Source: a virus
Taxonomy: Duplodnaviria > Caudoviricetes
IMG/VR virus record: IMGVR_UViG_2576861683_000003
Location: 1 to 64,000 of that record
Reading direction: 5' to 3' (one strand)
Length of the DNA stretch: 64,000 nucleotides
The notes below the pieces were generated by a model. That model did not search any database. It was given only the letters and a program-made list of their open reading frames with translations, and was not told where the DNA came from. Below, in pieces: positions 2,065-27,551 of the stretch. The first letter of the stretch is position 1. The number at the start of each line of letters is the position of its first letter. Made by a program: the position numbers and the translations under genes.

Positions 2065-2099
2065 CGCAATGACAGCATAGAGTTTTCCGTATTTTATGA

Positions 2100-7770: not shown

Positions 7771-7925
7771 TAACACCTAAATTATCACTTACTTTATTAA
7801 TTTGTAGGGTATATTTCATTCATTATTTTCTTATTTTTAGTTTTGTAGGGTTAATTAAACAATTTATATTAATCACGCTTGTAACTTAACTTTGCTACCT
7901 TAAGTACAAAGTTAATTTGTAAAGG

Positions 7926-8970: not shown

Positions 8971-10083
8971 TTGAACCCTTTTTGGCAAACGTTCTTGTGG
9001 ATAGCCGCTCTTTTTTGGGGAGCAATAGCATCATTGTTTGCAAATGAGATCATGTCTTTTTCTTCGCCGCTTCCTTCAAACTGGAACCATCCTCCCAATT
9101 ATTACACAATCATGTTCTTTTCAACGGCTGTTATTCTGACATTTGGTTTTGCTCTTAGTAACTGGGTAGCTAGAGCTCAAGATAGTATTGTCGTTGAATC
9201 AATGCTTACGATGCCACCACACGATTTCTGGTCAAGTTACGGAGAAAACTTTTCAATCGCATCACAGATGGTGGATAACAGATCAACATCAATGTTCAAC
9301 AGACTTGAAGAGCACAAAAACTCACCTGATAAGTTAGATTCTCTGCGCAAAGATTTAGAGAAAGATGCAAGAACAATTTTGGACTCAATTATCAACCTCG
9401 TTAAAAAGTGGGATTCATCAAACCTTCGAGGTAGTTCCGTAATTTATCGTGCAAATTTAATGAAAGTATATTATTTCGGTGACAGTGAAGATTGTATAAA
9501 ACCAGATTCGCAAATAGCTAAACAACTAAATGTGCATGGAAAACGTTTAACCCAACAACCGTTTAGTAGTCACTACTCAGGCTTTGTGGTGTTAGAAAAC
9601 AACATCTATACAACAACAACCGAAACGAGTTCTCCCACCCCTGACGCTGACAGAAAAGCGATTGCATTTCCGTTTACAAACTTAGTCAACGATTTAGAAT
9701 ACCCTATTTATTCAAATCTTTTAGGTGCACCTAAAGCAATTGTATCGCGTAGCGCATCGTATGTACCTGATGTAAACAACATTATTGATGACTATGAAAA
9801 AAATAGCACAGTGGTTGATAAAGAGATACTCGAGCAGCTTAAAGAGTATTACTCCGATACCTCTGTCGCTCATTCGATTCTCTCAATACCAGTTCGTAAT
9901 AGTGATACCTTGAAGGTTTCATTTGTACTAAATATCTATAGAAATCAAAATGGCCTTTTGTTTGAAGGTAGCAAAGTAAAAGATTTCGTTGAGATTATTC
10001 GACCTTTCATCACAACCTTAGCTCGACTCTTGGAAACCGGTGAATTGTTCGATCAATTAAGAAGCCAACACGAACAGCAATAA
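8971..10083 (+). CDS. Membrane-anchored protein with GAF-like C-terminus (homologue of 25703..27100)
   Basis: Two N-terminal TM segments; NLLGAP, SILSIPV and VLNIY motifs. Confidence 0.7.
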   Translation: MNPFWQTFLWIAALFWGAIASLFANEIMSFSSPLPSNWNHPPNYYTIMFFSTAVILTFGFALSNWVARAQDSIVVESMLTMPPHDFWSSYGENFSIASQMVDNRSTSMFNRLEEHKNSPDKLDSLRKDLEKDARTILDSIINLVKKWDSSNLRGSSVIYRANLMKVYYFGDSEDCIKPDSQIAKQLNVHGKRLTQQPFSSHYSGFVVLENNIYTTTTETSSPTPDADRKAIAFPFTNLVNDLEYPIYSNLLGAPKAIVSRSASYVPDVNNIIDDYEKNSTVVDKEILEQLKEYYSDTSVAHSILSIPVRNSDTLKVSFVLNIYRNQNGLLFEGSKVKDFVEIIRPFITTLARLLETGELFDQLRSQHEQQ

Positions 10084-10147
10084 ATGCTCTATGATTTACC
10101 ATAGAGTTAGAATACAAGGGAGTTATAAACAAAGGGGGGAAGCTAAT

Positions 10148-10270
10148 ATGACACAAACACAAAAAGCGCTTTTAAAGAAGGCGGATGCGTTAAAACGTCT
10201 TGGTAAAGCTGGTAATGCAAAGCAGTTAGCCGACAAACTGCAACAGACTCTTCAGACTCGTACAAGATAA
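10148..10270 (+). CDS. 40-aa basic helical peptide
   Basis: MTQTQKALLKKADALKRLGKAGNAKQLADKLQQTLQTRTR*; G-rich RBS upstream; hairpin at 10305-10339 downstream. Confidence 0.6.
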   Translation: MTQTQKALLKKADALKRLGKAGNAKQLADKLQQTLQTRTR

Positions 10271-10905
10271 TGGGGCATCAAAGCCTTCTATCCTCAAATA
10301 TTTATGACAAGCTTTTCATTTATAATAAAAGGCTTGTCATATCTCTGATATTATCATAAAAATCAGATTTAGCTTGGGTTGATTATGTGAATAGCCACTG
10401 ACATGATAGACCGATTTAGGTCGAGCCTCGTTGTAATATCTATTCAAGCCCAGCTTATTCAAGGCAAACTTCTTATAGCCTTAACTTTCAGCTATTTCTG
10501 TCCAAAAACGAGTACAAATGACTGTCTATAATTCACCCATGGCTGATTTTCAACCTTACCAAAACAATATGAATACCCACAGACATTAACTTTCTCGCTA
10601 GTAAGTATCTCAAAAACCTCAATTACGTCTGGGTCACCATAGCAAGCTACCCAACTTAAATAATCGCCATCACAATCAAAATTCAGTGTTTTGGGTGTTT
10701 TGCTCATTGGCTGGTGACAAGTCTGGCAATTGTTTATTTTACCTTCCTTTTAAGATTTTGAGTTCTATGCTGCTTAACATATTACAGTTTAGCCTGTTTT
10801 TCTCTCAACCAGCCCCTTGAACGCTGTTTGCAGACAGTTTAGTGCCAGAAGCGGGCATTATTATCGCTAATTATATTACCCAACATAGGTAAGTTCAAAA
10901 TACGA

Positions 10906-11664
10906 TCACATGTCAGTTTTTATTTGTTCAGTGGTTAATATACGCGTTTGTAATTGCAACACATCATCAGGCGAAAACCTATTTTCAACCCTTCTAAGAT
11001 GATTTATAATATCAATAATTTCATTATCATCTTTGACTATGATATATTTTATGTCTCTTGGATTAAAGGTTAATCGTAGGTGACTTATTTTATCATTATA
11101 TTCCTTTTTTTGTTGTTTTGTTCTTATTCTAGTAATGGGCACGAATGGTAATATGTCTTCTTCATTGATACTTGGAACATACCTCCATTCTTTTTCATCC
11201 GCAAATCTATAATTTTTAGTCACAAATTTAGATCTTTGTAGATCCCCCTCATAATTTTTAAGATATCTATAGATATCCATGAACTTCATGTAATTTTTAT
11301 TAAATTCTGTATGCTCTTTATCATCTATTATAAAATCCATTTGTCGATATAAAGCATTTAATGCTGAGGTAAATCCATCGGGGAACTCACTATTTTTATT
11401 TACATACCAAACAGGATTCAGTCCTTTCGAATTTGCCCATGATTTATTTAAACCAATACCATAATTACCATATTTAGCAATATGATCTTTTAGATCAGAT
11501 AGCTTAATATCACAGAAGGAAACCATAGGAATACCAAACTCCCTTGTTTCATTTCGACCTTGTATCCTTTCTCTCGCATATGATATTTTAAATGAGTGTT
11601 CGAGTATTTTTAATAATCCATCTCTATCAGTAAAATGAAATAATATTTCAGGGTGTAAGCTCAT
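10906..11664 (-). CDS. abiGi: AbiGi-family abortive-infection protein
   Basis: LFHFT, PMVSFCDI, YGNYGIGL.KSW...GLNPV.Y and EKEWRY motifs. Confidence 0.8.
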   Translation of the reverse strand: MSLHPEILFHFTDRDGLLKILEHSFKISYARERIQGRNETREFGIPMVSFCDIKLSDLKDHIAKYGNYGIGLNKSWANSKGLNPVWYVNKNSEFPDGFTSALNALYRQMDFIIDDKEHTEFNKNYMKFMDIYRYLKNYEGDLQRSKFVTKNYRFADEKEWRYVPSINEEDILPFVPITRIRTKQQKKEYNDKISHLRLTFNPRDIKYIIVKDDNEIIDIINHLRRVENRFSPDDVLQLQTRILTTEQIKTDM

Positions 11665-11769
11665 TATTATTCCTTATATTTATTCGATTTGCTTACATCA
11701 GAACATTACTCTCAATTCGGAAATGGTCAATAATTATATGAGATACATACCAAAATCTGTATCTCTAAC

Positions 11770-12920
11770 TAAATAGCTAAGTCTAATACCACCACACTTT
11801 TACCAATCCATACTTTCCACTAGAAAGCAGACTGATGGTTACCATAAAATTCCGAACTTTTTTCAGTTATTGTCACATTATTCAGCAGTGATGATTACGC
11901 GTTATCATGTCATGCAAAACTTACCATAGTCATTAGACATCGTTAATACACGAGAGAATAAACTGGCTGATAAATGACCGTGACTTTCAGAATGGCTTTC
12001 AGTCAGAACAGAGTTTCACTGTTCTTATAAAGAATATAATTATCAACAAAAAGCGTGACAGTATTTGCTCTGCGATAGATCGATTTCAAGTATTTTATCA
12101 ACCAGATAAAAACGCAGAGCTTTACTGTTACCACCGACATAACTGACTTTTCCTGTTCTTCTATGTAACTCTCCTACCAAATAGTATTTCTAATGCTACT
12201 CCTGAGTGACATCTCATTTTTGCTGACCTCATTGCTGCCAGTCCGTACCGATTTTTGAATAAAAATGAATACCGACTTCATCTTTATAAAAGACCAGACA
12301 TTCTGCCTTGTATTGCCCTAGCACATTATTGATTGCATCGATTTTTTCTCTTTATCAGGATCATGGTCGAGCAGTGTTGGCAAGGTTCTGTGCCAGACAA
12401 TACTGGTAGCAGGGAGCTATCGAAGCAGTGTTCCTACACAAATATAATGTCAAGCTGATTCATTGATTTTAATAGTTCCCTCCTGCTTTAGCGTAAACGT
12501 TGGCAACCGAAGTCAGCAGGAGTCAGCTTTATAAACGCCTACAATAATGCTCAGATGGTTTCAAACAGTGAACGCAAGGAGTGTCCCGCAAATAACAAGT
12601 TTAAACTATTAATATCGTACAGCATGAACCTATTTATCCAGCAACCAACTGAAAAGTGGGCATAGCATAAAACTTGGGAAACTTCATTGAATGTATATCT
12701 CCAATGTAACATCAACATCACAATAAACCTGCAGACATGGCGTTTATCGCGGATTTGCTACACATTTTTTTGCATCAGGTGTCATACATTACGAAGTATC
12801 GATGCTATGATTGTCATCGCTCAGTCTAGTTGGTGATTATGGTTGATTTGGCGATTGTTTAGAGCACACAATCTGGGCTGAATTCCTTTATGGTTATCTA
12901 TTATTTGATTCAACTATTTA
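11770..12920 (-). mobile_element. Full-length but degenerate IS630-family element
   Basis: TAAATAG...CTATTTA ends in a C-TA/TA-G context, about 1150 bp; broken transposase fragments MTIIA.., FYKDEV, TGKVSYVGGNSKSSAF, VDNY, YQPVYS. Confidence 0.85.
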
Positions 12921-13080
12921 GATTTACAAAAATAGATATTCTGGCTTAGCTAATAAAATTAATGGGTGAAACTTGGTTAAGTGTCATTGATATTTCTAAT
13001 TCAAGTGAAATTAGCTCACCGCTAGAATTTAAAGACAGTGAAATATCCAAAGGCCTCTGTCGATGTGTGTACCAAAAAAT

Positions 13081-13171
13081 TCATAACACATTGCACAACA
13101 AGAAAACACTGCTACGAAGCTCGTACATCCGCAAGCTATACTTACTCTGGCCTGTGTACAAGACGTTATGC
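13081..13171 (+). repeat. attC-like imperfect inverted repeat
   Basis: TCATAAC...GTTATGC with imperfectly paired arms, immediately before the next ORF. Confidence 0.5.
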
Positions 13172-13181
13172 ATAAATTCAA

Positions 13182-13793
13182 ATGTATGATCTGGAGAAAA
13201 TAATGTTGGAATTTGAGACAGCAAAGACAATTGCTGCTTTTGGTGGACTCGGACTCGGGGGACTAAATCTGGGGCTCTCCCTTTACAAAGACTTTTTCCG
13301 CATAGGTAATATTAAGGTTGAAATCGAAAAGTCAGAAATAAAATGGCGCTCAGCGGGCACATATGACTTTTTAGTCAGTTTAAATGTTATTGCTAGCGGA
13401 AAAGATGTATACCTAAAAAATATATGGATAGAACATCCTACAAAAGTATTTGGACCATTTAACCTATCATCAAAGCTTTACGCTAATAAAGTTGTAAAAC
13501 ACTTAGCTCAAGACATACTGGCTCTAGATACCGAGATGTATGAAGCAGAAGTGAAACGTTTATTTAAAAAATCTGAGTACATCAGGGATTTGTGCATCAA
13601 TGAAGGTCAACATAAAACTCTTACCATTACAGATAGGTTTGATTCTGAGCGATTAATAGATGGGTGGTTAGAAGTGCCATTAACCAAATGGAAATTAGTC
13701 ATTGACTACGGTACAAAAATCATTTTTATCCCATTCAATTTTACAAATACTAAGTCATCTGAAAACCATGCTTTTCACGATTGGCATGTATAA
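13182..13793 (+). CDS. Hypothetical protein with N-terminal TM helix (cassette-like gene)
   Basis: 203-aa ORF; hydrophobic Gly-rich N-terminus; stop codon lies inside GTATAAC. Confidence 0.65.
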   Translation: MYDLEKIMLEFETAKTIAAFGGLGLGGLNLGLSLYKDFFRIGNIKVEIEKSEIKWRSAGTYDFLVSLNVIASGKDVYLKNIWIEHPTKVFGPFNLSSKLYANKVVKHLAQDILALDTEMYEAEVKRLFKKSEYIRDLCINEGQHKTLTITDRFDSERLIDGWLEVPLTKWKLVIDYGTKIIFIPFNFTNTKSSENHAFHDWHV

Positions 13794-13858
13794 CAAAACG
13801 TAGCTGTCAGATAAATTTTCCACTACGCTCCAAATTTTTGCGGAGCGTAGTGCTATGC
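13788..13858 (+). repeat. Degenerate attC-like site with an internal 11-bp perfect stem
   Basis: GTATAAC...GCTATGC; cactacgctcc/ggagcgtagtg. Confidence 0.5.
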
Positions 13859-13982
13859 ATTTGATACTTTAATAAAATTTTCAATGATTTACCCGAGTAA
13901 CTAAACGTGAATTAACGAGCAATATAACCACTGTCAGAAAGAAGAAGTCTATAATCCCTACAAAATTAGCACCGCAAGAGAT

Positions 13983-14900
13983 TTATTCAACAGGCTCATC
14001 CTGAGAGGAAAATCGGTCTATCAAGTGATTGAAATTCGGCTCATCTATTTTAGACTGCTGTGGTTGGATAAAAGAAGAGCGATAAGGAATGCGAGAGTCA
14101 GACAAATCTTTTAATTCGATGAAGCTTAGGCTAGGATAGAAACTTGGCTCAGCGTCGGAAATAGCGTGGATAATTCGACCTGTAATCTCCCTATTTAAAG
14201 TAATTTCAGGAACTGGAGTGACTGATTTCATCTCTCGTCTCAGCCTATTTGTCTCCCCCTCCCATAATGCAGTCAAATAATTTTCATGTATGTGACTGCC
14301 GAAATATATTGAGTATAAGACTCATGCATTTGTAACTTATTAATTTGATGTATGTCTTCTTCATTGTTGATATCAATGACGATGCTTGCTGAGTCTCCAA
14401 TAATTTCATACGTCTCAGGATCGTACAGGAAGGCTAACAGTGATGGGCTTAGTAAAAAAATATCATCAACACTAAGTTAATATTACCCAGTTTGCTGCAT
14501 TTATAGTCGCTCAGGGCGATATTGGTAAACGATACTGGAGAATCGCTAAAAATGAATGGATAACTAGTAGTGTTTTTCATAATGATTAATATTAAGTCAC
14601 TAACTTCATCTACCTTGTCTGGCACATTCATAAGATTTACATACTGCATTATTTTAGGATCGCTAAAAGAGGAAAACACTTGTTTCATTGCTTGCTTTAT
14701 AGCATCGGTAGCCTCTTGTGAGTCCCCTGAGTCATAGTTTGCCAAGTCATCAATTGGGGGTTGGAAAAAATCTTTATAAAAGTCCTGTACAGGGGTTTCG
14801 TTGCTTCTGATCGTCTACCATAAACATTTTCTGTATTCTTAATATTGTAAGTTCCTAATATAAGAGGTTGCTAATTTGTGCTTTTCATCAGGAAACGGAC
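13983..14900 (-). pseudogene. Fragmented DUF4238-like gene
   Basis: N.TSYPFIFSDSPV motif in 14449..14745, with further fragments in other frames; boundaries approximate. Confidence 0.55.
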
Positions 14901-15147
14901 TGGCGGTTAGCATGAAATACTGGACTTTTTCAGTAACTACCACATTGTTCGACACCCACGATTACACGTTATCGTACTTGCAAAGCCTTTCATTGCCATT
15001 CAACATGGTTATGTCCATTTCTTTTAATCTAAATATTTTCAGGCTAATAACACTCCGGTAGCCATTAATCTCTATACTTCTGTTTTACACGACTTATGAA
15101 GGTTTTGAGTGCAGGAGATGAAGGTATAGATAGTATGCTGACAGATG

Positions 15148-15183
15148 ATATAATAACGCCGTATATATACGGCGTTATTATAT
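15148..15183. repeat. Perfect 36-bp palindrome, probable terminator of the GAPS4 operon
   Basis: ATATAATAACGCCGTATA-TATACGGCGTTATTATAT. Confidence 0.85.
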
Positions 15184-15184
15184 A

Positions 15185-16297
15185 TTACTTATCTTTATTA
15201 CGATGATGTTCGTAAGCGGTTATTTTTACGCTTTCTAGCGTTTTCATAATTGCTGATTTTATAGTGTTAATTTTTGAATTAGATACACCTTTACCATTAA
15301 AAGATTTGAAATCTATCACTAATTCGGCTGCTTCATTTTTTTTAGAGGCGTAATCAGGGAATTCATATGATATTTTACATTCAGCATCATAATCTATATC
15401 CTGCATTGTATAGTTAGCGACCAATTTTGCTATTTTTAGGCTCGGGTGAATACTCCTTTTTTTGAAGAATATAGAATCACCAAGAGTACCTTTTAGTTTG
15501 AACTCTTCTATATTTTTTTCTAACCACTTCATATCTGGAGGGAAGGTCGCATCTTCGTCTGGGTGAAAATCTACATCGATAATTTTCTTAAAATAGAATT
15601 CATTTTGAATATGATTTTCGGAAATATTTTTGAGGAAAGCTATGCGTTCTTCATTATTAAAATGGTTGAATTGTATTTTTAATATTTCAGCATTCCTCTT
15701 AATGTGACCATTGTCTTTAAAATGAGAATTTAATTTTTTAAGAATTTTATCCGCAACAAATTTTGTCTCATTAGATGTATGGCTGATTGATATATTTACT
15801 TCAACTTTATCATGTTGCCCATTTTTTTTTTCGAGCTCAACTCGACCTAAGAAAAATTGTTCTGTTTCATTCCATCCACTCATTAGATCAGTTCGTTTAA
15901 CTTCAAAATCTAGAGCAACTAGATTTTCTTGATCATCTTTAGCATAAAAGTCAGAAATAAAAGACAGTTCATAATTGCTGAATGGGTCATCGATTAAACC
16001 AGTTAGATCTATATCCCCACCAATTGCATCAATTAATGTATCTTCAGAATCCCATTCTAAAGTTCGCATGCTTATTTTAGAGCTATGTTCTTTAGTTTTT
16101 ACTTTTTCTATTAACTCATTAAACTCTGTTGGTGAAATCAATGACTTCATAAGCAAAGGAACAGTATTATTCTTTTCATCGCTTGAACAAAACACTCCCC
16201 TATTCCGTAATATTGATTTAACATCAGATTTTGTAATTTTACTCTGAGAGAGAAGAGTCTTTAAATTATCTCCGCTTGGTAATATAATATTATCCAT
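15185..16297 (-). CDS. gapS4b: GAPS4 anti-phage system subunit B
   Basis: LPSGDNLKTLLSQSKIT..D...LR.RGVF N-terminus; 3 nt downstream of the gapS4a-like gene. Confidence 0.7.
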   Translation of the reverse strand: MDNIILPSGDNLKTLLSQSKITKSDVKSILRNRGVFCSSDEKNNTVPLLMKSLISPTEFNELIEKVKTKEHSSKISMRTLEWDSEDTLIDAIGGDIDLTGLIDDPFSNYELSFISDFYAKDDQENLVALDFEVKRTDLMSGWNETEQFFLGRVELEKKNGQHDKVEVNISISHTSNETKFVADKILKKLNSHFKDNGHIKRNAEILKIQFNHFNNEERIAFLKNISENHIQNEFYFKKIIDVDFHPDEDATFPPDMKWLEKNIEEFKLKGTLGDSIFFKKRSIHPSLKIAKLVANYTMQDIDYDAECKISYEFPDYASKKNEAAELVIDFKSFNGKGVSNSKINTIKSAIMKTLESVKITAYEHHRNKDK

Positions 16298-16300
16298 TTA

Positions 16301-17209
16301 TTATCCCCTAAAATCACTACTATAAGATGCAATTTCTATATTGATATCTTTATCAGTTGCCAGCCTGATGGCATCTAATGATTCTTTGCTATTGAGTTGA
16401 TTATAATTTTTAAAAACAAACATTAGATTTTTTGAAATGTCGGCGACTAAATATCTGATGCAGTTTATTAACCCCTCTAATAAACCACTTGAATAATCAT
16501 CAGAGCATACCATGCATATTATTGGTTGTTCATTATTATCTTGTTCAATAACAAATGGGATTATTGGCGATGATATATATTCTACGGGGAGAGTTTTTCC
16601 AAAATATTTTTTCTGTACCATTGTTAGATTCAAGGATGTAGGAGGGTAGAAAAAATTGACCTTGTCTTCTCCGTATTTATTTCTAATGAATGTGATACTA
16701 TCAAATAAAAATTCAGCTCTTTTATTATCAATGACATGAATTGTTCTAAATTTTAAATTGCTATTGTTTTGTGTATTTTTGATTTGATTTATAATACTTT
16801 TCTTTTCAGGATTTTTATCATTATTAATGTAAAATAAAATCCCTGTTTCAACCTTCCGATATGAACCATTAGTACTGAGACGTTCATTAATTTCTTTTTT
16901 AAGATTTGATTTATTATAGCACTCTATCGCTAGTGCAATATCTTCAAAGTGCGCCCTAAATGTAGATGACACATTCGAATAAGGATTAGATGAGTATTTC
17001 GATGAGATTATAACGTTTTCAATAGTTTTACTCTCTAAAGGGGAATGGTAAGCGAAAAGTGCATCAATTCCATGCGTCTTTTTTTTATGCCTTTGAGTAT
17101 GACATTTGACATATTTATTCGTTACGTGGTTTTCCCAGCCAAACAAATCTAAGAAATTAGTCACAATATTTTCGCCAATATCACCAACTAATTTTGAGAA
17201 CTCACCCAT
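16301..17209 (-). CDS. gapS4a: GAPS4 subunit A, PD-(D/E)xK nuclease
   Basis: MGEFSKLVGDIGE, THGIDALF and ISSKYS motifs. Confidence 0.75.
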   Translation of the reverse strand: MGEFSKLVGDIGENIVTNFLDLFGWENHVTNKYVKCHTQRHKKKTHGIDALFAYHSPLESKTIENVIISSKYSSNPYSNVSSTFRAHFEDIALAIECYNKSNLKKEINERLSTNGSYRKVETGILFYINNDKNPEKKSIINQIKNTQNNSNLKFRTIHVIDNKRAEFLFDSITFIRNKYGEDKVNFFYPPTSLNLTMVQKKYFGKTLPVEYISSPIIPFVIEQDNNEQPIICMVCSDDYSSGLLEGLINCIRYLVADISKNLMFVFKNYNQLNSKESLDAIRLATDKDINIEIASYSSDFRG

Positions 17210-17658
17210 GATTTCATCCTTTCAATTTTATAAGATCGTTCGAGTACCATTGCATCGTTACTCGTCGCATTTTTAGATACAGTGCATAATTATAAATACC
17301 ACGAATACTATTTTTATCAACTTACGCTAACTATATTTCAATCTATGCGCTATAAAACCTTTGTTTATGTAAAATTGTCAACATGGCAGGTCTGAAACCA
17401 TAAGCTATAGCTCATCCTTTGTATCTGAGCAATTTAATCACTTAATACAATTCAGAATTCCACGTCTCAATTTCACTCAACGAGTAATCACTCTGAAGCT
17501 AATAACCAGAGGTTTTAAAAGCTCCGTTTTTTTGAGAAAAAATTAATTTCACTGAAGTGTTATACTTCTGCTATAAACGTGGAATAAATTCAATATAAAC
17601 AGTAACGGTTCTATAAAATTATAAGATAAATAGTGCTGTTAATCATAACGCAAGAGAA

Positions 17659-18936
17659 TTAACTTACAATTAAATCATCACTTAAATCAGCATAATCATA
17701 TAAATCAGCACGTTTTTGGTAGGAACGCCATAAAATAAATGGTTTATCAACGATTTTTATTCTTGAAGAACTAGCATCAAACTCGAATACTATAGGCTTT
17801 ATTGCTATTTTCGCTTGTAAATCAACTGACTTTCTCAGTGCTTGATTTAGTTTTTTAGATGAAACATTTGCACTTTTAGGATGTACTTTCTGTATCATTC
17901 TACGAGCAGCTGCTTCTGGTACACCTATCTCTAAATACTTTTCTTCAGCTGTTATTAATACAAATAAGATCCATTTATATAACTCTAGTGATGTTTGATC
18001 AAAACCACTACTAAAATCAGTTAAAAATTTAAAATACCTAGAGTATTGTTCATTTATAATACTTTCTATACTATCTTCAACACTAAAATTTTTCCCAACA
18101 ACTACAACCTCTTGCTGATTAGAATTTATATTAGCTAATTCACATGCTCGGTAACATAACTGTTGAGCCAAAAAAACACTACCTTTACATAATTGTATTA
18201 CTTTCTCTTTGAAATCATCTGAAAATTTTATATTTAAAATTTTCTCACTATTATCAAATAATATTTTAAAATCTTCTGGTTTCCAGATATCTGCATTAAT
18301 TGAAATAATTCTTCCCGCTAAATCTCCATTAAAAGTGGTCAATTTATCTTCATCAAGCCATACTCCCACAATTATAAAACACAGTTTTGATGATTCGTGG
18401 AATGCCTTCAATGCAACAGAAAAATCAATCTGTGTTTTCTCTGGTAAGTAATGAAAATCCTCTATAACAATAATTCTATTAAATGCAACTTCCTCTAAAG
18501 AACTTATAATATCATTTACATCTTCAGGATCTAACTCTAAATTTTTTTTATTAATTGTTTTAGCTGCATCACCGGTAATTTCAATTGCACCATTACCAAT
18601 AAAAGGTATATTTATTCCAAGCTTAACTTTAGCCGTTCCCTTCATTGTTTTACTAGTAGACATTGAAACTTCAAAACCAACTTGCTTTAATATAGCTATA
18701 TGTAAATGCTCTAGAGACCAATTATTAGAACACGTTATCTCTATATATTCATGTGAAGATAAATTTTTTTTTCTTAAGGATGTCTTTCCTTGTTTAGAAC
18801 TACCATAGACAACAACATGAGTTTCTTGAGCTAGAGCTTCAATAAATTTATCATCAGTATGTTCTCTCGTAACATAATTCTCAGGTAAATCTCTTGATGT
18901 TTTGAATACTGAAGATATAGTGCTACCACTTTTCAT
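17659..18936 (-). CDS. Stand-alone P-loop NTPase with helical/wHTH-like C-terminus
   Basis: Walker A GSSKQGKTS, Walker B IIVIEDFH; ORF track start is 18984. Confidence 0.75.
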   Translation of the reverse strand: MKSGSTISSVFKTSRDLPENYVTREHTDDKFIEALAQETHVVVYGSSKQGKTSLRKKNLSSHEYIEITCSNNWSLEHLHIAILKQVGFEVSMSTSKTMKGTAKVKLGINIPFIGNGAIEITGDAAKTINKKNLELDPEDVNDIISSLEEVAFNRIIVIEDFHYLPEKTQIDFSVALKAFHESSKLCFIIVGVWLDEDKLTTFNGDLAGRIISINADIWKPEDFKILFDNSEKILNIKFSDDFKEKVIQLCKGSVFLAQQLCYRACELANINSNQQEVVVVGKNFSVEDSIESIINEQYSRYFKFLTDFSSGFDQTSLELYKWILFVLITAEEKYLEIGVPEAAARRMIQKVHPKSANVSSKKLNQALRKSVDLQAKIAIKPIVFEFDASSSRIKIVDKPFILWRSYQKRADLYDYADLSDDLIVS

Positions 18937-18985
18937 TAGTACATTCTCATAGATACCATTAATATGGTACAATAACATTTCCAAA

Positions 18986-19720
18986 CTAATAGTATAATAA
19001 TATTTTACCCTTAAATGAATTATTATTAGTCACAAAAACCCTATTGATATTCCCCACATCGACCACCAAACAGGTTGCAGGAAATCTGGATATCTCTTCT
19101 CCTGCAACGTTTGTTGCCCATTTAATGCTTTCTTTATATCGAATTTGGAGCACATTTCCTTCTCTTCGAATAAAAGTTTCCATCAAAGCACCTTCAAAAC
19201 CATCTTCCTGAATTCCAGCCATACCACCACCAAAAACAAAGGCTAAATCCTTTATGTTCGGTAACGGATAATCCATATTTTCTTTTTGTGGAATAATAAA
19301 ATAATCAACTATTTTCAATATTCCCCAGTTTGAATTATAAACGGTCTTTTTTGTTTTGCTGTTTTTTACAACCAATCCATATTTTTCATTAAAAATATTA
19401 TTGGGCTGATCACCAAACTCATAAATATCAACAACGCCCTGTGAATCATAGCAAGGCTGTGATATATAAACCGCTTTCATTTCGTTATTTAAAATTCTTG
19501 AGGTGATCCGAATAAATGCATGTTTAGGTGATATGGCTAATAATTTTGTATTGGGATGAGGCGGTGTTTTAAACTCTTGGCTATATCCTTCATTATTTGA
19601 TGTTATCCCGCCAGACATTCTTATAGTTCTTTTACCAAGACAGCACATCACTTGGTTATGGCTATCGATCTGAACTTGCCTATTTTCACCGCGGATGATT
19701 ATTCCATATTTACTTTTCAT
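18986..19720 (-). CDS. Tail-tip accessory protein downstream of J
   Basis: Repeated KYG(I/L) beta-rich motifs; position after J. Confidence 0.6.
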   Translation of the reverse strand: MKSKYGIIIRGENRQVQIDSHNQVMCCLGKRTIRMSGGITSNNEGYSQEFKTPPHPNTKLLAISPKHAFIRITSRILNNEMKAVYISQPCYDSQGVVDIYEFGDQPNNIFNEKYGLVVKNSKTKKTVYNSNWGILKIVDYFIIPQKENMDYPLPNIKDLAFVFGGGMAGIQEDGFEGALMETFIRREGNVLQIRYKESIKWATNVAGEEISRFPATCLVVDVGNINRVFVTNNNSFKGKILLYY

Positions 19721-20052
19721 TAATAAACACCATAGTAGAGTTTTATAATATCTTCATATTCACCATCAACTCCATTGGTATACATATTTTTTAATTCAAG
19801 TTTAATAATCCCATTATTTATCTCTAATTTAATATCACCTGCCAATCCCATCAAAAATGCCGAACCAAACCAAGCGAAAACCTTGCCATATTTATTTAAA
19901 TCTTGATGATCAAAAATATACTCTTTTTGAGTATGTAGTGGGATAGGTGTGATATCATGATATCCAACTATTCTTCCTACTCTGTCTGAGGTATTTAATA
20001 AATCCATATCATATAATGTAGACCTAACCAGTACACCATATTTACTCTTCAT
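19720..20052 (-). CDS. Small tail-tip accessory protein
   Basis: Starts MKSKYGVLV and overlaps the J stop; ORF track start is 20145. Confidence 0.6.
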   Translation of the reverse strand: MKSKYGVLVRSTLYDMDLLNTSDRVGRIVGYHDITPIPLHTQKEYIFDHQDLNKYGKVFAWFGSAFLMGLAGDIKLEINNGIIKLELKNMYTNGVDGEYEDIIKLYYGVY

Positions 20053-23000
20053 TGCTGATATCACCAATAATAACAACGTTATTTCCAAACTCATCTTTGA
20101 CATATAAATTTTGTTCTGTGAGGGATGTACCACCATTACCGCCATAAAATTCTAATTTATTATTTTTTACGTCAATAATAAAACCTGACTCGTCGGGATA
20201 ATAATTATCGGAAGTAATGGCTTCTGATAAGACTAAATTTCTGATCATAGCTTTATCAATTAATGCATCTCGAATAAAAAACTGTCCATTTTTTGCTGAC
20301 ATAAACAGTTCCATTCGATTATTTTTAGGATTATAAAAGGCAAAGTTATTGGCATTAAATCCAATATAGGAGGTAATCTTCTTATTTTTAATTTCAGCAC
20401 TCACCACAAGGCCACCAGCATTATATTTAATATTATCTTGGATAATGGTAATGTTCATTGAATGCCTCGCATATCCGCCTGTTTGTGTAAATTGCGCATT
20501 CATCTTTCGACTAACAATACCTGACTGCTGATTAAACTTGGCTTGAACCTGTTGTTGATAAGTTGATTGGGCTTGTGTTATTGAGGAAATGGCTTCTTTT
20601 TGGATAATAATATCCGCTTCCGTATTTTCTATTTGAGTTCGGATATCTTTAATATCTATTTCAATCTGTTCACTGTATTTTTCAAACTTGCGAGATAAGC
20701 GGTATTCATTGTAACGTAGTCTTTTAACCGTGTTTTCATTCCAATCGACAGTTTCACTCAATGTTTTCCATGCTTGGGTTTCTTGTAATTCTTTATCTAA
20801 GGTATCTAATATCTCTCTGGTGTGGCTTTCTGGTTGCCCTATTCCTTCCACAAATTCTGAACGCCCTACTGCGTTTATACTGCGAACATAAATATAATAG
20901 GTATGCCCTGCCTTTAGGTTGCACCCTTGAATAACCCACATCGTACTGACACCTAAATATTCAGCGCGACTTTCCACTTCGCGAATATCCGTGATCTGTT
21001 TTTCTGAAAACCAAAACTCATACTGTGCGCGTAGGCTGTTTTGACCACCAGAACGCGGAATAATACCCAAGCTAAAATAACCTGACTCCACTTCAATATA
21101 ACTCGGTGGTAATGGTGGATTAATCGCGAATGAGGTTGTGGCCACCTCGCCTTTTTGTTTCCGATCATTTTGAGGCACGACGGATAAAACGTAATTTCCT
21201 TGAGGCAAACCACCAAAACGATACATCGTATCCGTGGTTGAGGCGGTGCCGACAATACGATCACTTGTAGTGAGTTTTAATAAAAAGTCTACCCCTCGAC
21301 TGGAATAAGGCGTGTTCCAGCTGGCTTCTACTTGCCACGCACTCGCATCCGATTCGATATCCACAGAAAGGTTTTCAACCGGTGGAATAAATCCACCCAG
21401 TGGCGTATCGGGCTTTGGTTCAAATTTAGCACCTTTATCGACAATCGCCTCTTTTTCGGGTATGTGCTGTACGGCTATAACCGTAAAACTGCCATTACCA
21501 TTATCAGCTAAACTGATGGCACGAAATAGTCGGCGACGTAAAGACGGGAGTGTCAACGTCCAAATTCCTCCCTCGCGTAATCCTAGCGGTAAAGTATCCA
21601 TCTTTATTTGATTAGATGCGGGATAGCTCACTACTTCATAAGATTGTGGATCACCTTGTGCATTGATGAGTGTGACGCTTGATTTACCGCTTTTGGGTGT
21701 GTCGATATTACGATCTAAGGTTAATGTTTGAGAGGTATAATCAATGTGTGTTATGCGTCCACCGATTTGATTATCGGCATAATAATTATCAGCAATTTCA
21801 ATAATATCACCCGGCATATGACGCAAGCCTTCACTGCCGACAGTAAACTCAACTGTCTGTGTCTCTAATTTTTCCGTGGTTAATAACCACAGACCGTGAC
21901 GATGAGCCTGCCCTCTGCTAGTGCAACCAAAGGCATCGACGCGCATCACATTACGCCAAAAACGGGCAATACTGTCATCATCTTCAACCAGCTCAACACT
22001 GGTTTTCCAGCCATTATCGGGATCAATAAAACGAACCTCGACAGCAGTATGACGCGATTTTAATGCACTAAAACTATACTGAAAGTTACCCTCAATCACA
22101 TTGGCGTTGGTATAGGGCCACACCACATCAGACGGTCTATCTTGAATAAAGGTTAATGTTCGCCCATTCCAGACAGGCATAATGCGCATCATGGCACACA
22201 TATCACCCATGACATCATAGGCTTTGCGCATATCCGTAATGTAAGCATTACACGTCATACGGGGTTCTTTTCCACCGAACCCATCATCAACCTGTTCATC
22301 ACAATAACGACCGATTGCATACAGGGCGAATTTATCGACTTCACTGATATTGAGACGTTTCCCCATGCCATAACGCGGATGGGTTAATAAATCCCATAAT
22401 ATCCACGCGGGGTTGTTGGTAAATGCTGGTTTAAAAGTACCATCCCAAATACTTGAATAAATCCGTTTATCCGGATCGTAATTGCTCGGAACCTGAATAA
22501 TACGGCCTTTGATAAGGTAATTACGGCGTGGAAATTTATTGCCAAACTGCTCACTATCAAACATCAATCCCGCAACGGCAGAACCCGGATAGGTTTGTGA
22601 AATATCGACTAATTCAGAATAACTTGACCAAATGGTATTATTTTGAATTTTGTCAGACGTGCTGTCTTGAGTGATACGGATCATGCGCACACTGAATGGC
22701 ACGGGGGGTAAATTATCCAACACAACGGCCATTAAGTAAGGTGAGTTAGAGCGTTTGCCATTAATCGTGACGTTTTTCTCTGTTATCCATGCTCCATTGC
22801 GCTGAATTTGGATTTGTAATTGAACAGAAGTCGGTACGCGATCACCATTATCTTTGGTTTCAACCAGAGCTTGTGTACCAAAGGTTAGACGTAAACGGTC
22901 AATATTGGGTGAGGTAATAGTACGAGTGACGGGGGAATTATATTTTACTTCGATACCCACCGGCACTTCATTCGCAGACGCGGTAAAGCCACTCATTGCT

Positions 23001-23245
23001 GGTTGCTCTAATGTCCCTGCCCGCCATTGTGCATACATTCCATTAATGGTGCTATTGCCAGAGCCGTCTATCACAGGTGTATCATCCAAATAAATACACC
23101 CTAAATCATCCATCGAGCCTTGAATATGAATAGGACCTTCAATCGGTCCCTCACTGATTAAATCAATTAATGAGGCTTTTTGTCGTGATGTTAAATCGTT
23201 TGGTGCCTCATACGGTGTTCTTTGACCGCCACCTGGTTTACCCAT
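20042..23245 (-). CDS. Host-specificity / central tail fibre J
   Basis: Lambda J-like IDLISEGPIEG and NNPAWIL.DLLT.PRYG; DUF1983-like C-terminus. Confidence 0.92.
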   Translation of the reverse strand: MGKPGGGQRTPYEAPNDLTSRQKASLIDLISEGPIEGPIHIQGSMDDLGCIYLDDTPVIDGSGNSTINGMYAQWRAGTLEQPAMSGFTASANEVPVGIEVKYNSPVTRTITSPNIDRLRLTFGTQALVETKDNGDRVPTSVQLQIQIQRNGAWITEKNVTINGKRSNSPYLMAVVLDNLPPVPFSVRMIRITQDSTSDKIQNNTIWSSYSELVDISQTYPGSAVAGLMFDSEQFGNKFPRRNYLIKGRIIQVPSNYDPDKRIYSSIWDGTFKPAFTNNPAWILWDLLTHPRYGMGKRLNISEVDKFALYAIGRYCDEQVDDGFGGKEPRMTCNAYITDMRKAYDVMGDMCAMMRIMPVWNGRTLTFIQDRPSDVVWPYTNANVIEGNFQYSFSALKSRHTAVEVRFIDPDNGWKTSVELVEDDDSIARFWRNVMRVDAFGCTSRGQAHRHGLWLLTTEKLETQTVEFTVGSEGLRHMPGDIIEIADNYYADNQIGGRITHIDYTSQTLTLDRNIDTPKSGKSSVTLINAQGDPQSYEVVSYPASNQIKMDTLPLGLREGGIWTLTLPSLRRRLFRAISLADNGNGSFTVIAVQHIPEKEAIVDKGAKFEPKPDTPLGGFIPPVENLSVDIESDASAWQVEASWNTPYSSRGVDFLLKLTTSDRIVGTASTTDTMYRFGGLPQGNYVLSVVPQNDRKQKGEVATTSFAINPPLPPSYIEVESGYFSLGIIPRSGGQNSLRAQYEFWFSEKQITDIREVESRAEYLGVSTMWVIQGCNLKAGHTYYIYVRSINAVGRSEFVEGIGQPESHTREILDTLDKELQETQAWKTLSETVDWNENTVKRLRYNEYRLSRKFEKYSEQIEIDIKDIRTQIENTEADIIIQKEAISSITQAQSTYQQQVQAKFNQQSGIVSRKMNAQFTQTGGYARHSMNITIIQDNIKYNAGGLVVSAEIKNKKITSYIGFNANNFAFYNPKNNRMELFMSAKNGQFFIRDALIDKAMIRNLVLSEAITSDNYYPDESGFIIDVKNNKLEFYGGNGGTSLTEQNLYVKDEFGNNVVIIGDISNEE

Positions 23246-23259
23246 AATACAAGCTCCTC

Positions 23260-23910
23260 TTAACCACCGTGTTTGCCGGCATCGATATCTTCGCCATCAC
23301 TGTCATCCATAATTTCAACGGATTGTGAAATGACGCGTGAACCACACATAATTTCGCCATACGCAATGGGCACCGGCATCCCTTGAGCAACCGCGTTATC
23401 AAGATTACTAAAATAGGTATTGCCTTTTTCCTCATCGCCACGAGATAAATTAGGGGGTTTAGGCGCGGGGATCAGCATTTGAGCGACACCACCAATCATC
23501 ATGGCTGCACCACCCGCCATCAAAGATGTGGCAACGGTTGCGGAGATCCACGCTGGTCCCCACCATCCCAATGAAAATAAGGCAGCACCCGCAACAAACT
23601 GAAAAACACCGACGTTTTTAGCCCCTGATAATTTAGGCACAATATGGACGACCGCGTTATCAGGTAAGGTTTCATTGAATTTTTGGTGAACTTCTTGCGG
23701 GGAAATATCGGTACCCGCAATACGGACTTGATACCAACCCTCACGAATGGCGAGGCGTAATGCGGGGATTTGAATAAAAAGCGCGTGAAGCCCTTCAGAG
23801 GCAGTATTCACATTTAAATCAAAGCGACGTCCAAATCGTTGCAAATTCCCGTAAAGTCGGAAGGTTGCCAATCGCGGTAACGCCAGATTGAGTGCGTCAT
23901 TCGTTGCCAT
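23260..23910 (-). CDS. Tail assembly protein I
   Basis: LYGNLQRFGRRFDL; AQG.PVP.AYGE. Confidence 0.9.
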   Translation of the reverse strand: MATNDALNLALPRLATFRLYGNLQRFGRRFDLNVNTASEGLHALFIQIPALRLAIREGWYQVRIAGTDISPQEVHQKFNETLPDNAVVHIVPKLSGAKNVGVFQFVAGAALFSLGWWGPAWISATVATSLMAGGAAMMIGGVAQMLIPAPKPPNLSRGDEEKGNTYFSNLDNAVAQGMPVPIAYGEIMCGSRVISQSVEIMDDSDGEDIDAGKHGG

Positions 23911-24551
23911 CGTTCGTTATACTCCTCGCGTTTGCTAAGTTGGTTTGGAATGTGGTGCAAAATTGTTTGATTGCCTAAATAGATCCCCGCGTGGTTGGCG
24001 CGAGAGCTGGCATAACAACACAAAATAATATCGCCGGGTTGGGCTTCTCTTTTTACCTGCCGAAAGCCACTGCTCACCATGTTATCGAGATACAATTCTT
24101 TGCCTTGGCGCCACCAATTATCGTGACGCTCAAAATCAGGCAGATCATGTCCCGCTAAATGGTAAGCATCACGAAACAACCCATAACAATCTGTTGAGCC
24201 ATGAATAAATTGGCGACCTAAGAGATGAGGTACCGGTTGATAGCAGTGAATTTTTTCATCACAGACCACTCACCACGGCAACGCACTGTTCACCTGCAGT
24301 TGTCGATCTAAGGAGCTGAGATAAGGCTGACCATCAGGGTGACTATGTACAACCGCGATCACCTCGCCCTGCTGTTCGGCGCGAATAAAATCATCAAAAG
24401 AAATCGTGAAGTGGTTTTTCGGATCAGCATGCTGATTAACGCAAGGTAAATACTGTTCACCCTGCGCGGTACTTATCAATAAGCCACATGCCTCTAAGGG
24501 CGCTTGCTCTTTTACCTGCGCCAAAATTGCTTGTTCAATCATAAGAAACAC
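23814..24551 (-). pseudogene. Tail assembly protein K (JAB + NlpC/P60), split by an in-frame TGA at 24270-24272
   Basis: EACG..HSHP domain and DCY..HAGIY domain in the same frame, separated by LPW*VVC. Confidence 0.88.
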
Positions 24552-24563
24552 CTTAGGAGGGAA

Positions 24564-25268
24564 TTAACTATTACCAATGCGGGACGTGGAAACAAATGCC
24601 CCTATGCGGGATTCGTTTTTTCGTAACTTGCAGTCACCAAGGCGCTTACCGCATTTGTCTTTTAACGGATCGGTGGTTGGCTTTCCCCATTCATCGGCAA
24701 CAGGAGGCCCTTTATACCCGCACTCTTCAGAGCGATATCCCCAAGGGCAGATATCTGACAAAATCACGCGACCAGGAAGCATTAATCCATCGGTTTCACT
24801 GGGTGTCGCCAACATAAAAGTGGCAGTCACTGAATTTAAACTGGTCATCTGCTCAATGATCCAGCGTGTCACAATTTCTTGTGATGGGTCAGCATTAGGA
24901 TTGCCTTGAGGAAAATTGACCGCATCCAAAAATTGGGTGCTGACAATGCGACGTACCACCAGCCCACCGATTGCACTATCTAACTGACTGGCAATCCCTG
25001 TAATCAGCCCGAATAAATTCGACAATGTAATAGTGGGACGCCCTGAGGGGCCTTTGCCATTAAAGGTAAATCCTTCGCCTTTCACGGGGTAAGGCTCATA
25101 GGTGTTTCCTTGCCAGATTAACGGTTCTTTACGCTGATTGAGTCCATCAAAAAAGCGGTACCGAATACCGCCTATTTTAGTTAAATCAAATTCGTAAAGT
25201 TCAAGTAAAGCATCCGAAGAGGAGAGTTCGGTAACACTAATTCGCATTTCAGGAGGAATATGTTGCAT
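24564..25268 (-). CDS. Minor tail protein L
   Basis: C.WGYRSEECGY.GP and DKCGKRL.DC Fe-S cysteines; ORF track start is 25310. Confidence 0.92.
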   Translation of the reverse strand: MQHIPPEMRISVTELSSSDALLELYEFDLTKIGGIRYRFFDGLNQRKEPLIWQGNTYEPYPVKGEGFTFNGKGPSGRPTITLSNLFGLITGIASQLDSAIGGLVVRRIVSTQFLDAVNFPQGNPNADPSQEIVTRWIIEQMTSLNSVTATFMLATPSETDGLMLPGRVILSDICPWGYRSEECGYKGPPVADEWGKPTTDPLKDKCGKRLGDCKLRKNESRIGAFVSTSRIGNS

Positions 25269-25278
25269 ATTAGATCCA

Positions 25279-25302
25279 ATAAAAAACCCGCCGAAGCGGG
25301 TC
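25279..25302 (-). terminator. Moron terminator upstream of L
   Basis: aaaaaacccgccgaagcgggt. Confidence 0.75.
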
Positions 25303-25470
25303 AGTATCACAATACTTTTTTATATTATGAATAATAGTTTAGGTATGATGAAGATAATATTCATATTTAAATAAATTATGAATTAATATCTTTCATATAA
25401 GAAAATAAATAAATTTAGATTAAAGTATTAATATTTTGATTATATTTTAATTGAATAATTAGGATTGTGA

Positions 25471-25701
25471 TTATTTTATTCTTCGTCTATCGACTGATTG
25501 TAATACACTAAATTTTCTTGCTTGTATAATATTTTCACTTTCTTTTTTATCTTCGTTTTTTAAATATATAAGTTTTCCTGAGTCTTTACTTTTCAACCAT
25601 CTACCATTTAAATCTATAGCGACTTCAGCATATAATGTATCTGAGCTGAGGAGTTTTTTATAGGAAAGTCCTGTATATGCCCATAATTCGGTTCTGTTCA
25701 T
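25471..25701 (-). CDS. 76-aa basic hypothetical protein coupled to the upstream TM-GAF gene
   Basis: Starts 1 nt after the upstream stop, with a GAGGTG RBS. Confidence 0.7.
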   Translation of the reverse strand: MNRTELWAYTGLSYKKLLSSDTLYAEVAIDLNGRWLKSKDSGKLIYLKNEDKKESENIIQARKFSVLQSVDRRRIK

Positions 25702-25702
25702 C

Positions 25703-27100
25703 TTACACCTCGGATTTTAGATCTGTTAGATAGTTATCTTCTTTTTCATTATCATTCAAATTGTAGCTATTTAGTAATTTAGAGTACAGTATTTTCAATG
25801 ACATTAATACTGATAGATTGTGGCACAATGGTTTTATTGTTGAATAATATACTTCTGACTTAATTTCATTTTCTAAGAAATTAACTCTATCGACATAAAT
25901 ATTTATAACTCCAGCTATCTCTTCAAATACGATAGGTATTTCTAATGTATTACAATCAATATCTAATTTTCCAATTGGTACTGACAGTATTGATTTAGTT
26001 CTATCTTTATCTTTTTCATAATACTTACGAATATCTTGTTCATATACTCCTGTAAGATGCTCTCGATATGTGGGAGATTTTTTTAATCGATTAAGGTAAG
26101 TATCAACGCACTCTTGTATGTTCTTTATATAAACTTCACGTGCAGTAATCACGGCTTCCGGTGCACCAAATAAATTGGGATGCTTTATCTTTCCAACCTC
26201 TTCAATGGTAGAGAATGGCATGCAAATTGGATATGAATTACTGTTCTTTCCATTTTTATAACAGTTTGAAAATTGGTATTTTTTATTAAGTTCACAGGTA
26301 AATTGTTGTTCACATATTAAAACATGATCGCAATGTTCTAAGCGAGATTGAAGATTCGATGAAAACAAAAAAAAAGGTGAAGATACAACGGCATTCTTAC
26401 TAAAAATAGAATGATTTTCTTGTTTATAAACATCCTCACTTTGAAATGTATTTAATAATGATGATGTTGGAACTAAAGAAAAAAGATTACTTTTTATCGT
26501 AACATCATCATTTCCTTCTAAAAAACGATGAGTCACTTTTAATATTGATTCCTGCACGGTATCTATAGCACTGTCTAAAGTGTCATTATAACTATTAACC
26601 AGATCTTCATTTCCTAAAATAGAACCCACTTGATGCGTTTCTGCTTGCATTATTTTTCTTAAATCCTGTACACAGGAATTAATAACACTTAGCATATTAA
26701 TACACTGTGTTCCATTTTCATTAACAGCATTATACGAAGCACGAGTTTGGTTTGTTTGTTCTTTATGCTGACTATAGATATAATGCAATACGCTCAATAC
26801 CAAAGCACAAGTCACGGGAATGGCAAAAAAGAGACTTTCAAATCCCCACACTTCACCATCAAACCACTGTTTTTGTAATTGTGTACCAAAAACAGATACA
26901 CTAGATGCCCAGAATATTCCAATAGCTGCTAGTAATAAATGCCCATAAGCAGAGTGAGTCATACTGGCAAGTCTCATTACCCATACACTTCTTTTCTTTC
27001 GTAAGAAAATAACGCATGCAATAATTCCAAATAATATAACAACAAATACTATAATACCCATATAGCCCATTTGGGTATATTTATCACTTAAATAATTCAA
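25703..27100 (-). CDS. Membrane-anchored protein with GAF-like C-terminus (homologue of 8971..10083)
   Basis: Three TM segments; NLFGAP, SILSVPI and GVINIY motifs. Confidence 0.7.
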   Translation of the reverse strand: MNYLSDKYTQMGYMGIIVFVVILFGIIACVIFLRKKRSVWVMRLASMTHSAYGHLLLAAIGIFWASSVSVFGTQLQKQWFDGEVWGFESLFFAIPVTCALVLSVLHYIYSQHKEQTNQTRASYNAVNENGTQCINMLSVINSCVQDLRKIMQAETHQVGSILGNEDLVNSYNDTLDSAIDTVQESILKVTHRFLEGNDDVTIKSNLFSLVPTSSLLNTFQSEDVYKQENHSIFSKNAVVSSPFFLFSSNLQSRLEHCDHVLICEQQFTCELNKKYQFSNCYKNGKNSNSYPICMPFSTIEEVGKIKHPNLFGAPEAVITAREVYIKNIQECVDTYLNRLKKSPTYREHLTGVYEQDIRKYYEKDKDRTKSILSVPIGKLDIDCNTLEIPIVFEEIAGVINIYVDRVNFLENEIKSEVYYSTIKPLCHNLSVLMSLKILYSKLLNSYNLNDNEKEDNYLTDLKSEV

Positions 27101-27131
27101 AGTTTACCCTTCCCTGTTATTTAAATAATGA

Positions 27132-27437: not shown

Positions 27438-27551
27438 TCTCCTCGCTAATTTTTAATTGATGGTACTTTAATAATTTATAGTTAATAAAAAAATCATTTT
27501 CCTCTTCTATTCTTTATTTTCAGACTGATTACACAGTAATAATTAATTTTA

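Follow-up and report, generated by a model that had tools for sequence, protein, structure and literature searches.

Membrane proteins with a small-molecule-binding domain act in several bacterial immune systems: PycTM of Pycsar, Cap14 and Cap15 of CBASS, and Cam1 and Csx23 of type III CRISPR all combine transmembrane (TM) helices with such a domain, and damage to the membrane kills or arrests the cell. The toxFtsL_D9:PanA pair of Gelidibacter mesophilus is a validated toxin-antitoxin (TA) pair (Ernits et al., 2023, PNAS, PMC10440598). Its toxin is a membrane-localised protein of 281 amino acids (aa) with a TM region, a long FtsL-like helix and a GAF domain, and has no enzymatic domain; it causes slow growth arrest and lysis and is neutralised by the adjacent PanA, which carries a Panacea (DUF4065) domain (PMC10440598). 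RexAB of phage lambda and Sucellos of the Vibrio cholerae superintegron (bioRxiv 10.1101/2024.07.02.601686) are two-gene exclusion modules composed of a cytoplasmic sensor and a membrane protein. Here we describe two loci in a stretch of 64,000 nucleotides (nt) of viral DNA (Duplodnaviria; Caudoviricetes), namely positions 1 to 64,000 of the IMG/VR record IMGVR_UViG_2576861683_000003. This whole stretch, which is part of a 97-kb provirus record, is called the window in the following. Each locus pairs a gene for a large TM protein with a GAF domain (TM-GAF) with one small gene. Comparison with relatives leads us to regard the two loci (copy 1 and copy 2) as copies of a single mobile module, self-contained and composed of two genes, that belong to two subfamilies separated by deep divergence.

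Two diverged copies of one large protein

The large open reading frame (ORF) of copy 1 (8971..10083, plus strand; P0001) comprises 370 codons when read from a TTG and encodes two TM helices, a helical hairpin and a GAF domain. The large gene of copy 2 (25703..27100, minus strand; P0002) is intact and encodes 465 aa with three TM helices, a helical hairpin and a GAF domain with insertions. The TTG start of copy 2 matches that of its homologue P0050, and hydrophobic segments on the Kyte-Doolittle scale lie at residues 8-37, 53-73 and 84-110. An earlier reading of the DNA letters (the sequence-only reading) had delimited both ORFs at these positions and described them as divergent, membrane-anchored homologues with colinear motifs. 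The homology is well founded. BLASTP of P0001 against P0002 yields E 8e-10 and 27% identity, limited to the C-terminal 154 aa, and profile alignments built from database homologues (A1 for copy 1, n=28 sequences; A2 for copy 2, n=32) match each other with a probability of 99.7% and E 5.8e-26 over 343 columns. This match begins at the first TM helix that both share and extends to the C-terminus, and all the motif pairs named earlier are aligned in it; the similarity is therefore real and full-length but ancient. One family member (P0068) carries motifs of both subfamilies.

The nearest homologues of both large proteins come from Vibrio. The closest relative of copy 1 (V. parahaemolyticus) is 89% identical and that of copy 2 (V. 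jasicida) 62%, versus 27% between the two copies, which indicates that both were acquired independently, as the sequence-only reading had supposed.

The motifs YRAN, N-L-x-G-A-P, S-I-L-S-x-P and N-I-Y-R-N are the family's own. In an alignment of 67 sequences the N of YRAN and the G-A-P are invariant, and a TxPP junction after the last TM helix as well as a Ser in the first shared TM helix are nearly so. The conservation of TxPP and of residues in the TM region suggests that the membrane part is functional and more than an anchor.

Predicted fold and membrane architecture

The AlphaFold2 model of copy 1, computed from A1, has a predicted local distance difference test (pLDDT) of 84.9 and a predicted template modelling score (pTM) of 0.75, and consists of two long TM helices, a helical hairpin (residues 86-151) and an alpha/beta domain (159-369). 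The best Foldseek matches of this model in the PDB are GAF domains of PDE6, PDE5A, CyaB2, Lcd1 and fRMsr (E 3e-4 to 1e-2). The model of copy 2, computed from A2 (pLDDT 85.2, pTM 0.74), follows this plan, but has one more TM helix at the N-terminus and carries insertions in its GAF domain; those of PDE6C, PDE2A and Lcd1 are its best matches (E 2.6e-3 and weaker). In both predicted models a six-stranded antiparallel sheet packs against helices and is superposable on solved GAF domains, and the sequence-only reading's proposal of a GAF fold next to TM helices is confirmed by both models. Sequence identity to solved GAF domains amounts to 9-14%. P0001 and P0002 have no match to Pfam GAF (PF01590/PF13185) at E <=1, and a profile search against PDB sequences gave no match. 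Among 67 distant relatives, weak Pfam matches occur to GAF_2 (7/67) and GAF (4/67), with a best E of 1.6e-5, and BFVD returned weak matches to phage GAF or membrane proteins (E 1.5e-3 and weaker).

In both copies, the basic residues that precede or separate the TM helices point to a cytoplasmic GAF domain. The large protein is predicted to reside in the inner membrane via two (copy 1) or three (copy 2) conserved TM helices, with the helical hairpin and the GAF domain probably exposed to the cytoplasm. Beyond TM helices, helical hairpin and GAF domain it contains nothing further, and no enzymatic output domain is recognisable in it.

The nearest structural neighbours include the cGMP- or cAMP-binding GAF domains of PDE6, PDE5, CyaB2 and Lcd1, and TM helices joined to a ligand-binding domain are also the plan of known signalling effectors. 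The large protein might accordingly be seen as an orphan effector of the CBASS, Pycsar or Thoeris-like kind, whose GAF domain would bind a cyclic nucleotide made by a cyclase elsewhere and whose TM helices would kill. GAF domains, however, bind many unrelated ligands, and fRMsr enzymes and PtsP are among the structural neighbours as well. The integron cassettes described below consist of two genes only and contain no cyclase, none was seen among the annotated neighbours of the loci listed, and no PADLOC model of such systems was matched. We regard this explanation as quite improbable.

Small partner genes

A small ORF follows each large gene. The type-1 partner (10148..10270, plus strand), next to copy 1, encodes a basic helical protein of 40 aa with a net charge of +8. 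The type-2 partner (25471..25701, minus strand), next to copy 2, encodes 76 aa and starts 1 nt past the stop of the large gene. A small partner was found next to every relative examined bar one ambiguous case, at at least 15 loci and in both subfamilies. Type-1 ORFs adjoin every copy-1-type gene read (with L028 as the ambiguous case), 25-81 nt downstream, in V. parahaemolyticus, V. cyclitrophicus, an Alteromonadaceae metagenome-assembled genome (MAG), Proteus, V. vulnificus, metagenome contigs and four further genomes. They encode 26-74 aa, mostly 40-59 aa; most are strongly basic (net +4 to +9), and most share the N-terminal pattern M-T/S-x-x-Q/E-K/R-x-A-L. The motif that the ORF of the window shares with its counterparts at this position reads MT..Q(K/R)A.L. 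Type-2 homologues have 80-94 aa and a conserved N-terminal motif M(D/N)..T(L/F)W..TA, and in V. jasicida, Shewanella, Neptuniibacter and Alishewanella they overlap the stop of the large gene. Their net charge spans +6 to -8. The richness in Lys and Arg noted earlier for both small ORFs is thus a conserved trait of the type-1 partners, but fails for the other type, which has acidic homologues.

Both small genes are under purifying selection. Between Proteus and V. vulnificus, the ratio of nonsynonymous to synonymous substitution rates (dN/dS) is 0.128/1.696 = 0.075 for the type-1 partner, comparable to that of the large gene (0.101/2.079); between the type-2 partner of the window and that of a sister prophage (L023) it is 0.044/0.262 = 0.17. 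The sequence-only reading had seen no similarity between the two small ORFs, and the two partner types are indeed not detectably related. The exchange of one partner type for an unrelated one is a typical trait of TA systems, and we count it in favour of a TA-like reading. None of the small partners of the window (P0003, P0004/P0071) matches Pfam. Since the partners are hydrophilic and do not resemble type I toxins, the effector is more likely to be the large membrane protein.

The type-1 partner, a basic helix, weakly matches a WhiA-HTH-like domain (helix-turn-helix; E 0.012), GAF is a classical sensory module, and several chromosomal copies stand among metabolic and signalling genes. Lysogenic conversion or housekeeping sensing would fit these observations: a membrane GAF protein and its partner, perhaps a nucleic-acid-binding regulator, would modulate host physiology with neither toxicity nor exclusion. 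We consider this rather improbable, since the large protein has no output domain, no DNA-binding family is matched at threshold, and physiological sensors are not typically found on mobile elements with a distribution that varies between strains.

Mobility and genomic contexts

In two integron arrays, attC repeats of about 125 nt directly bracket the large gene and its partner and nothing else. In V. vulnificus (L013) the flanking attC copies lie at 4804-4930 and 6349-6475, and in V. jasicida (L005) at 5805-5946 and 7736-7877. As exactly two genes are bracketed, the pair constitutes one functional mobile cassette in both subfamilies. A further cassette array (L014) adjoins intI and rplT. A search of the window for Vibrio attC arms with <=3 mismatches found none; this search covered the Vibrio type of attC only.

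The other contexts are diverse. A family copy stands directly after Gabija genes in Shewanella, other copies are near a TIR gene or near BrxR and RHS genes, and in a Proteus element a copy lies between the prophage integrase gene int and alpA. Tn7-like cargo and a position after rpoD in a metagenome contig add to these. The sample of contexts is small (about 25 loci) and partly biased to long contigs. An Alteromonadaceae MAG (G001:C25, locus L036) contains two divergent family copies, at 575-2071 and 9517-10578, 7.4 kb apart, each with a small downstream ORF and with methionine-salvage-type genes between them. An unbiased sample was formed by 401 genomes of the order containing an Alteromonadaceae carrier; the family occurs in 5/401. 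In these five carriers the family copies stand mainly among housekeeping genes; a resolvase, a UmuC-like gene and a PADLOC candidate each occur once. The patchy occurrence together with the varied contexts characterises the module as rare, patchy and mobile. The sequence-only reading had placed copy 1 in a defence island, and copy 1 is indeed flanked by a tyrosine recombinase gene and AbiGi. As to a general association with defence loci, many copies stand on mobile elements or by Gabija, TIR, BrxR or AbiGi, but the neighbourhoods in the unbiased sample do not bear it out.

Two tightly linked, co-oriented genes, one of them small, which are co-inherited on mobile elements, correspond to the layout of type II TA systems. 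As a two-gene integron cassette the module resembles many TA cassettes of Vibrio superintegrons, ParDE and Phd/ParE cassettes occur near family loci, and some copies are scattered lone insertions between housekeeping genes. The pair might therefore serve purely for addiction, as a stabiliser of integron arrays, islands and prophages that plays no part in defence against phages. This we hold to be unlikely, as several copies stand by defence genes and in a prophage exclusion slot; nevertheless, sequence cannot separate pure addiction from the explanation that we prefer.

The slot between tail genes M and L

Copy 2 had been described as part of an AT-rich moron between the tail genes M and L, and this was borne out. 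The insert (25269..27551, minus strand) has a GC content of about 0.30 versus 0.45-0.47 in its flanks, and lies between M (27552-27908) and the ATG of L at 25268. Among 27 sister prophages (L041-L067, at about 2000-4000), whose L proteins are 95-100% identical, the gap between M and L varies from 442 to 2365 nt and holds at least 8 different AT-rich inserts. This lineage of Vibrio prophages has a hotspot for cargo at its M-L junction. The cargo in sisters comprises a membrane protein with Imm_superinfect (49.7 bits) and zinc-ribbon domains, a HEPN-like gene of 177 aa, lipoproteins and zinc-ribbon proteins with two TM helices. Only two sister prophages (L022 and L023) have the TM-GAF pair, both with the copy-2 type alone; the idea that the copy-1 and copy-2 subfamilies work together was rejected on these grounds. 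No INPHARED phage matched the tail region in a megablast search.

The first gene of the insert is an ORF of 101 aa (27132..27437, minus strand) with no family match. A homologue with 34% identity (L043:2131-2481) opens the HEPN-like cargo in three sisters (L043, L049, L052), and the ORF is missing from the integron cassettes of the TM-GAF family. It is probably not part of the two-gene module and may serve the slot as a leader or adaptor gene common to several cargoes. The insert is closed by a terminator-like GC hairpin with a T-run (25285..25302, minus strand), directly before the ATG of L.

As copy 2 occupies a slot in which sisters have an Imm_superinfect membrane protein, small membrane proteins or lipoproteins, and as its large protein is membrane-anchored, non-lethal superinfection exclusion deserves consideration. 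The membrane protein would then block genome entry or an early membrane step, with the small protein as cofactor or regulator and no TA logic. The family, however, also occurs far from prophages, in integron cassettes and as lone chromosomal insertions, and neither a large conserved cytoplasmic domain with a GAF pocket nor an obligatory partner is a feature of known Imm or Sie proteins. Superinfection exclusion of this kind is thus an unlikely explanation for the module.

Mobile unit 1 and the frameshift in copy 1

Copy 1 is part of a unit of 1.95 kb (mobile unit 1; 8562..10513, plus strand) that consists of an upstream region of about 310 nt, the large gene, the small gene, a hairpin and a tail of about 240 nt. 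It shows 84% nucleotide identity, over exactly this range and with sharp ends on both sides, to three loci of V. parahaemolyticus. These relatives lie between resolvase genes or by PAAR, ParDE and HNH genes; including the window, unit 1 is found in four contexts in all. By eye, the minus-strand translation of the unit-1 tail (about 10337-10513) resembles the C-terminal end of an rve-type transposase, and unit 1 may have moved together with this piece of an insertion sequence.

A short stem-loop with an 8-bp stem (10086..10107, plus strand; z -0.95, not significant) separates the large and small genes of copy 1; its stem is retained and its loop altered in V. parahaemolyticus, and it could be a processing or attenuation site. 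A long hairpin follows the type-1 partner (10303..10341, plus strand), with an RNA folding energy of -21.7 kcal/mol, z -4.5 and none of 200 shuffles (0/200) as stable. A hairpin after each gene pair had been claimed, and both exist, but the one at copy 2 lies about 170 nt past the small ORF, just before L.

While the ORF coordinates of copy 1 are correct, the TTG at 8971 does not hold up as the native start. The nearest relatives (89% identity) have 401 aa, an N-terminus MNRLLEHK and a start 31 codons further upstream. The corresponding start and first 31 codons are present in the window (8879..8974, plus strand), out of frame and ending at a TGA, because a run of six A in two relatives (L001 and L002) is reduced to five near 8921. 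A contig of a public sequencing run (X1) is 99.5% identical over the whole of unit 1 and has the extra A behind 8920, so that its allele is intact with 401 aa. A second run (X2, an insect gut metagenome) contains just two short pieces and was given no weight as to habitat; no RNA run is among those listed for the unit. The shorter run in the window is either a true deletion of 1 nt or a homopolymer error. The IMG gene call for copy 1 is a fragment of 323 aa (P0006). With one A missing, copy 1 as it stands in the window has probably lost its activity or its native N-terminus.

The tail gene K (23814-24551, minus strand), which encodes JAB/MPN and NlpC/P60 domains, has an in-frame stop at 24270-24272. 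This stop and the frameshift in copy 1 together suggest that the prophage is decaying or that the assembly is prone to errors.

Extent of the family and database standing

An exhaustive profile search returned 474 clusters (at 50% identity) with E <=1e-3, 211 of them with E <=1e-10. Most members have 340-450 aa and are matched end to end, and the ten longest have no known domain fused to them. Hosts are Vibrio (including V. cholerae, V. vulnificus and V. parahaemolyticus), Photobacterium, Aliivibrio, Shewanella, Proteus, Gilvimarinus, Neptuniibacter and Bacteroidota MAGs. A scan of genome contigs, which rests on two peptide patterns, detected 3 loci only, and a scan of viral contigs with the copy-1 family found no relative.

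All named members, and likewise the ESM Atlas neighbours, are annotated as 'hypothetical protein'. For the four proteins of the window (two large, two small), nothing reached threshold in Pfam, PHROGs, PADLOC 2.0 or NCBIfam, and the system models of PADLOC-DB 2.0, which cover systems described up to 2023, gave 0 families at E <=1. The sequence-only reading had recognised no named system, and these databases agree with it. In the literature we found no description of this TM-GAF family: most phage literature on 'GAF' concerns the unrelated GafYZ regulators of Caulobacter gene transfer agents, and a preprint on V. cholerae cassettes (Darracq et al.) does not mention GAF.

Proposed function

From sequence we infer a function as a membrane effector of TA-like or abortive-infection-like type with a cognate small partner, for which the arguments on both sides are about balanced. 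The sequence-only reading had likewise proposed a membrane effector, gated by a ligand or a phage protein, with a small antitoxin or regulator. The GAF domain would sense a small ligand or protein, and the TM helices would receive its state by way of the helical hairpin and the conserved T-x-P-P junction. They could then oligomerise or rearrange, damaging the membrane or envelope so that growth stops. The small partner, presumably co-transcribed, would bind and silence (or tune) the large protein, and infection or loss of the element would remove the partner and release it. Toxicity, the question of who neutralises whom, the ligand and an anti-phage effect are what we infer here.

A bolder reading is that of a so far undescribed, widespread (at least 474 clusters at 50% identity) stand-alone immune or TA family in which the GAF domain would directly sense a ligand derived from infection or stress and gate its own effector of two or three helices, in which the tiny partner would restrain the effector and has been replaced at least once by an unrelated one, and which would spread as cassette and as moron. 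We assign this bolder reading a probability of roughly 0.35. Several observations count against the TA-like or abortive-infection-like effector proposed here. The variation in charge of the type-2 partners means that one common binding mode is not evident, and the order with the large gene first and the small gene second is the less common one among TA systems. The mostly housekeeping neighbours in the unbiased sample leave an enrichment in defence islands undemonstrated, and the frameshift of copy 1 is compatible with a dispensable or costly gene.

If functional, the family would join the catalogue of small single-effector defence or TA modules as a so far unannotated member, and would provide the first case of a GAF domain as sensor of a membrane effector in phage exclusion. 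With about 1.5 kb it would be a compact system in which to study the gating of TM helices by a ligand-binding domain. Its minimal unit is cleanly defined by the cassette boundaries, the occurrence of two partner types amounts to a natural experiment in partner exchange, and the M-L slot could be mined for further exclusion genes.

Two other genes of the window are recorded here. An AAA-like protein of 441 aa (17659-18984, minus strand) matches the PADLOC candidate system PDC-S59 (E 7e-71), and a neighbouring protein of 302 aa (16301-17209, minus strand) weakly matches 'Hp1' (E 2.5e-6).

Comparison with known systems

We do not assign the TM-GAF module to any named system. With Imm proteins (PF14373) it has in common that small membrane proteins of this kind occupy the same M-L slot in sister prophages; in contrast to the window family, Imm proteins have neither a GAF domain nor a partner, and they are related to it neither in sequence nor in fold. 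RexAB and Sucellos are, like the TM-GAF module, formed by two genes on a prophage or integron cassette. Their sensor and channel, however, are separate proteins of similar size, whereas here both functions would reside in one protein, which is joined by a partner of 40-94 aa, and no sequence match between these systems and the window module was found. The signalling effectors of Pycsar, CBASS and type III CRISPR share with the large proteins of the window the combination of TM helices with a soluble ligand-binding domain and the lack of an enzyme. They differ in their sensors, which are cyclic-nucleotide-monophosphate-binding, SAVED, beta-barrel or CARF domains in place of GAF, and in their dependence on an adjacent cyclase, whereas the cassettes described here have no cyclase and an obligatory partner.

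The closest known analogue is toxFtsL_D9, compared here by its published description: a TM region, a helical region and a GAF domain are combined in it as in the proteins of the window, and its neutralisation by an adjacent cognate protein corresponds to the logic proposed here. It is shorter, with 281 aa and one predicted TM region versus 370-486 aa and two to three TM helices, and its antitoxin is a Panacea protein, whereas the partners described here have 40-94 aa and no Pfam match. No DUF4065 was found among the neighbours of the family loci listed. Among the ESM Atlas neighbours, a Bacteroidota protein of 274 aa that has GAF hits is no more than a lead to a relation with toxFtsL_D9. As a validated toxin of similar architecture exists in toxFtsL_D9, the concept of a TM-GAF effector silenced by its neighbour is not wholly unprecedented.

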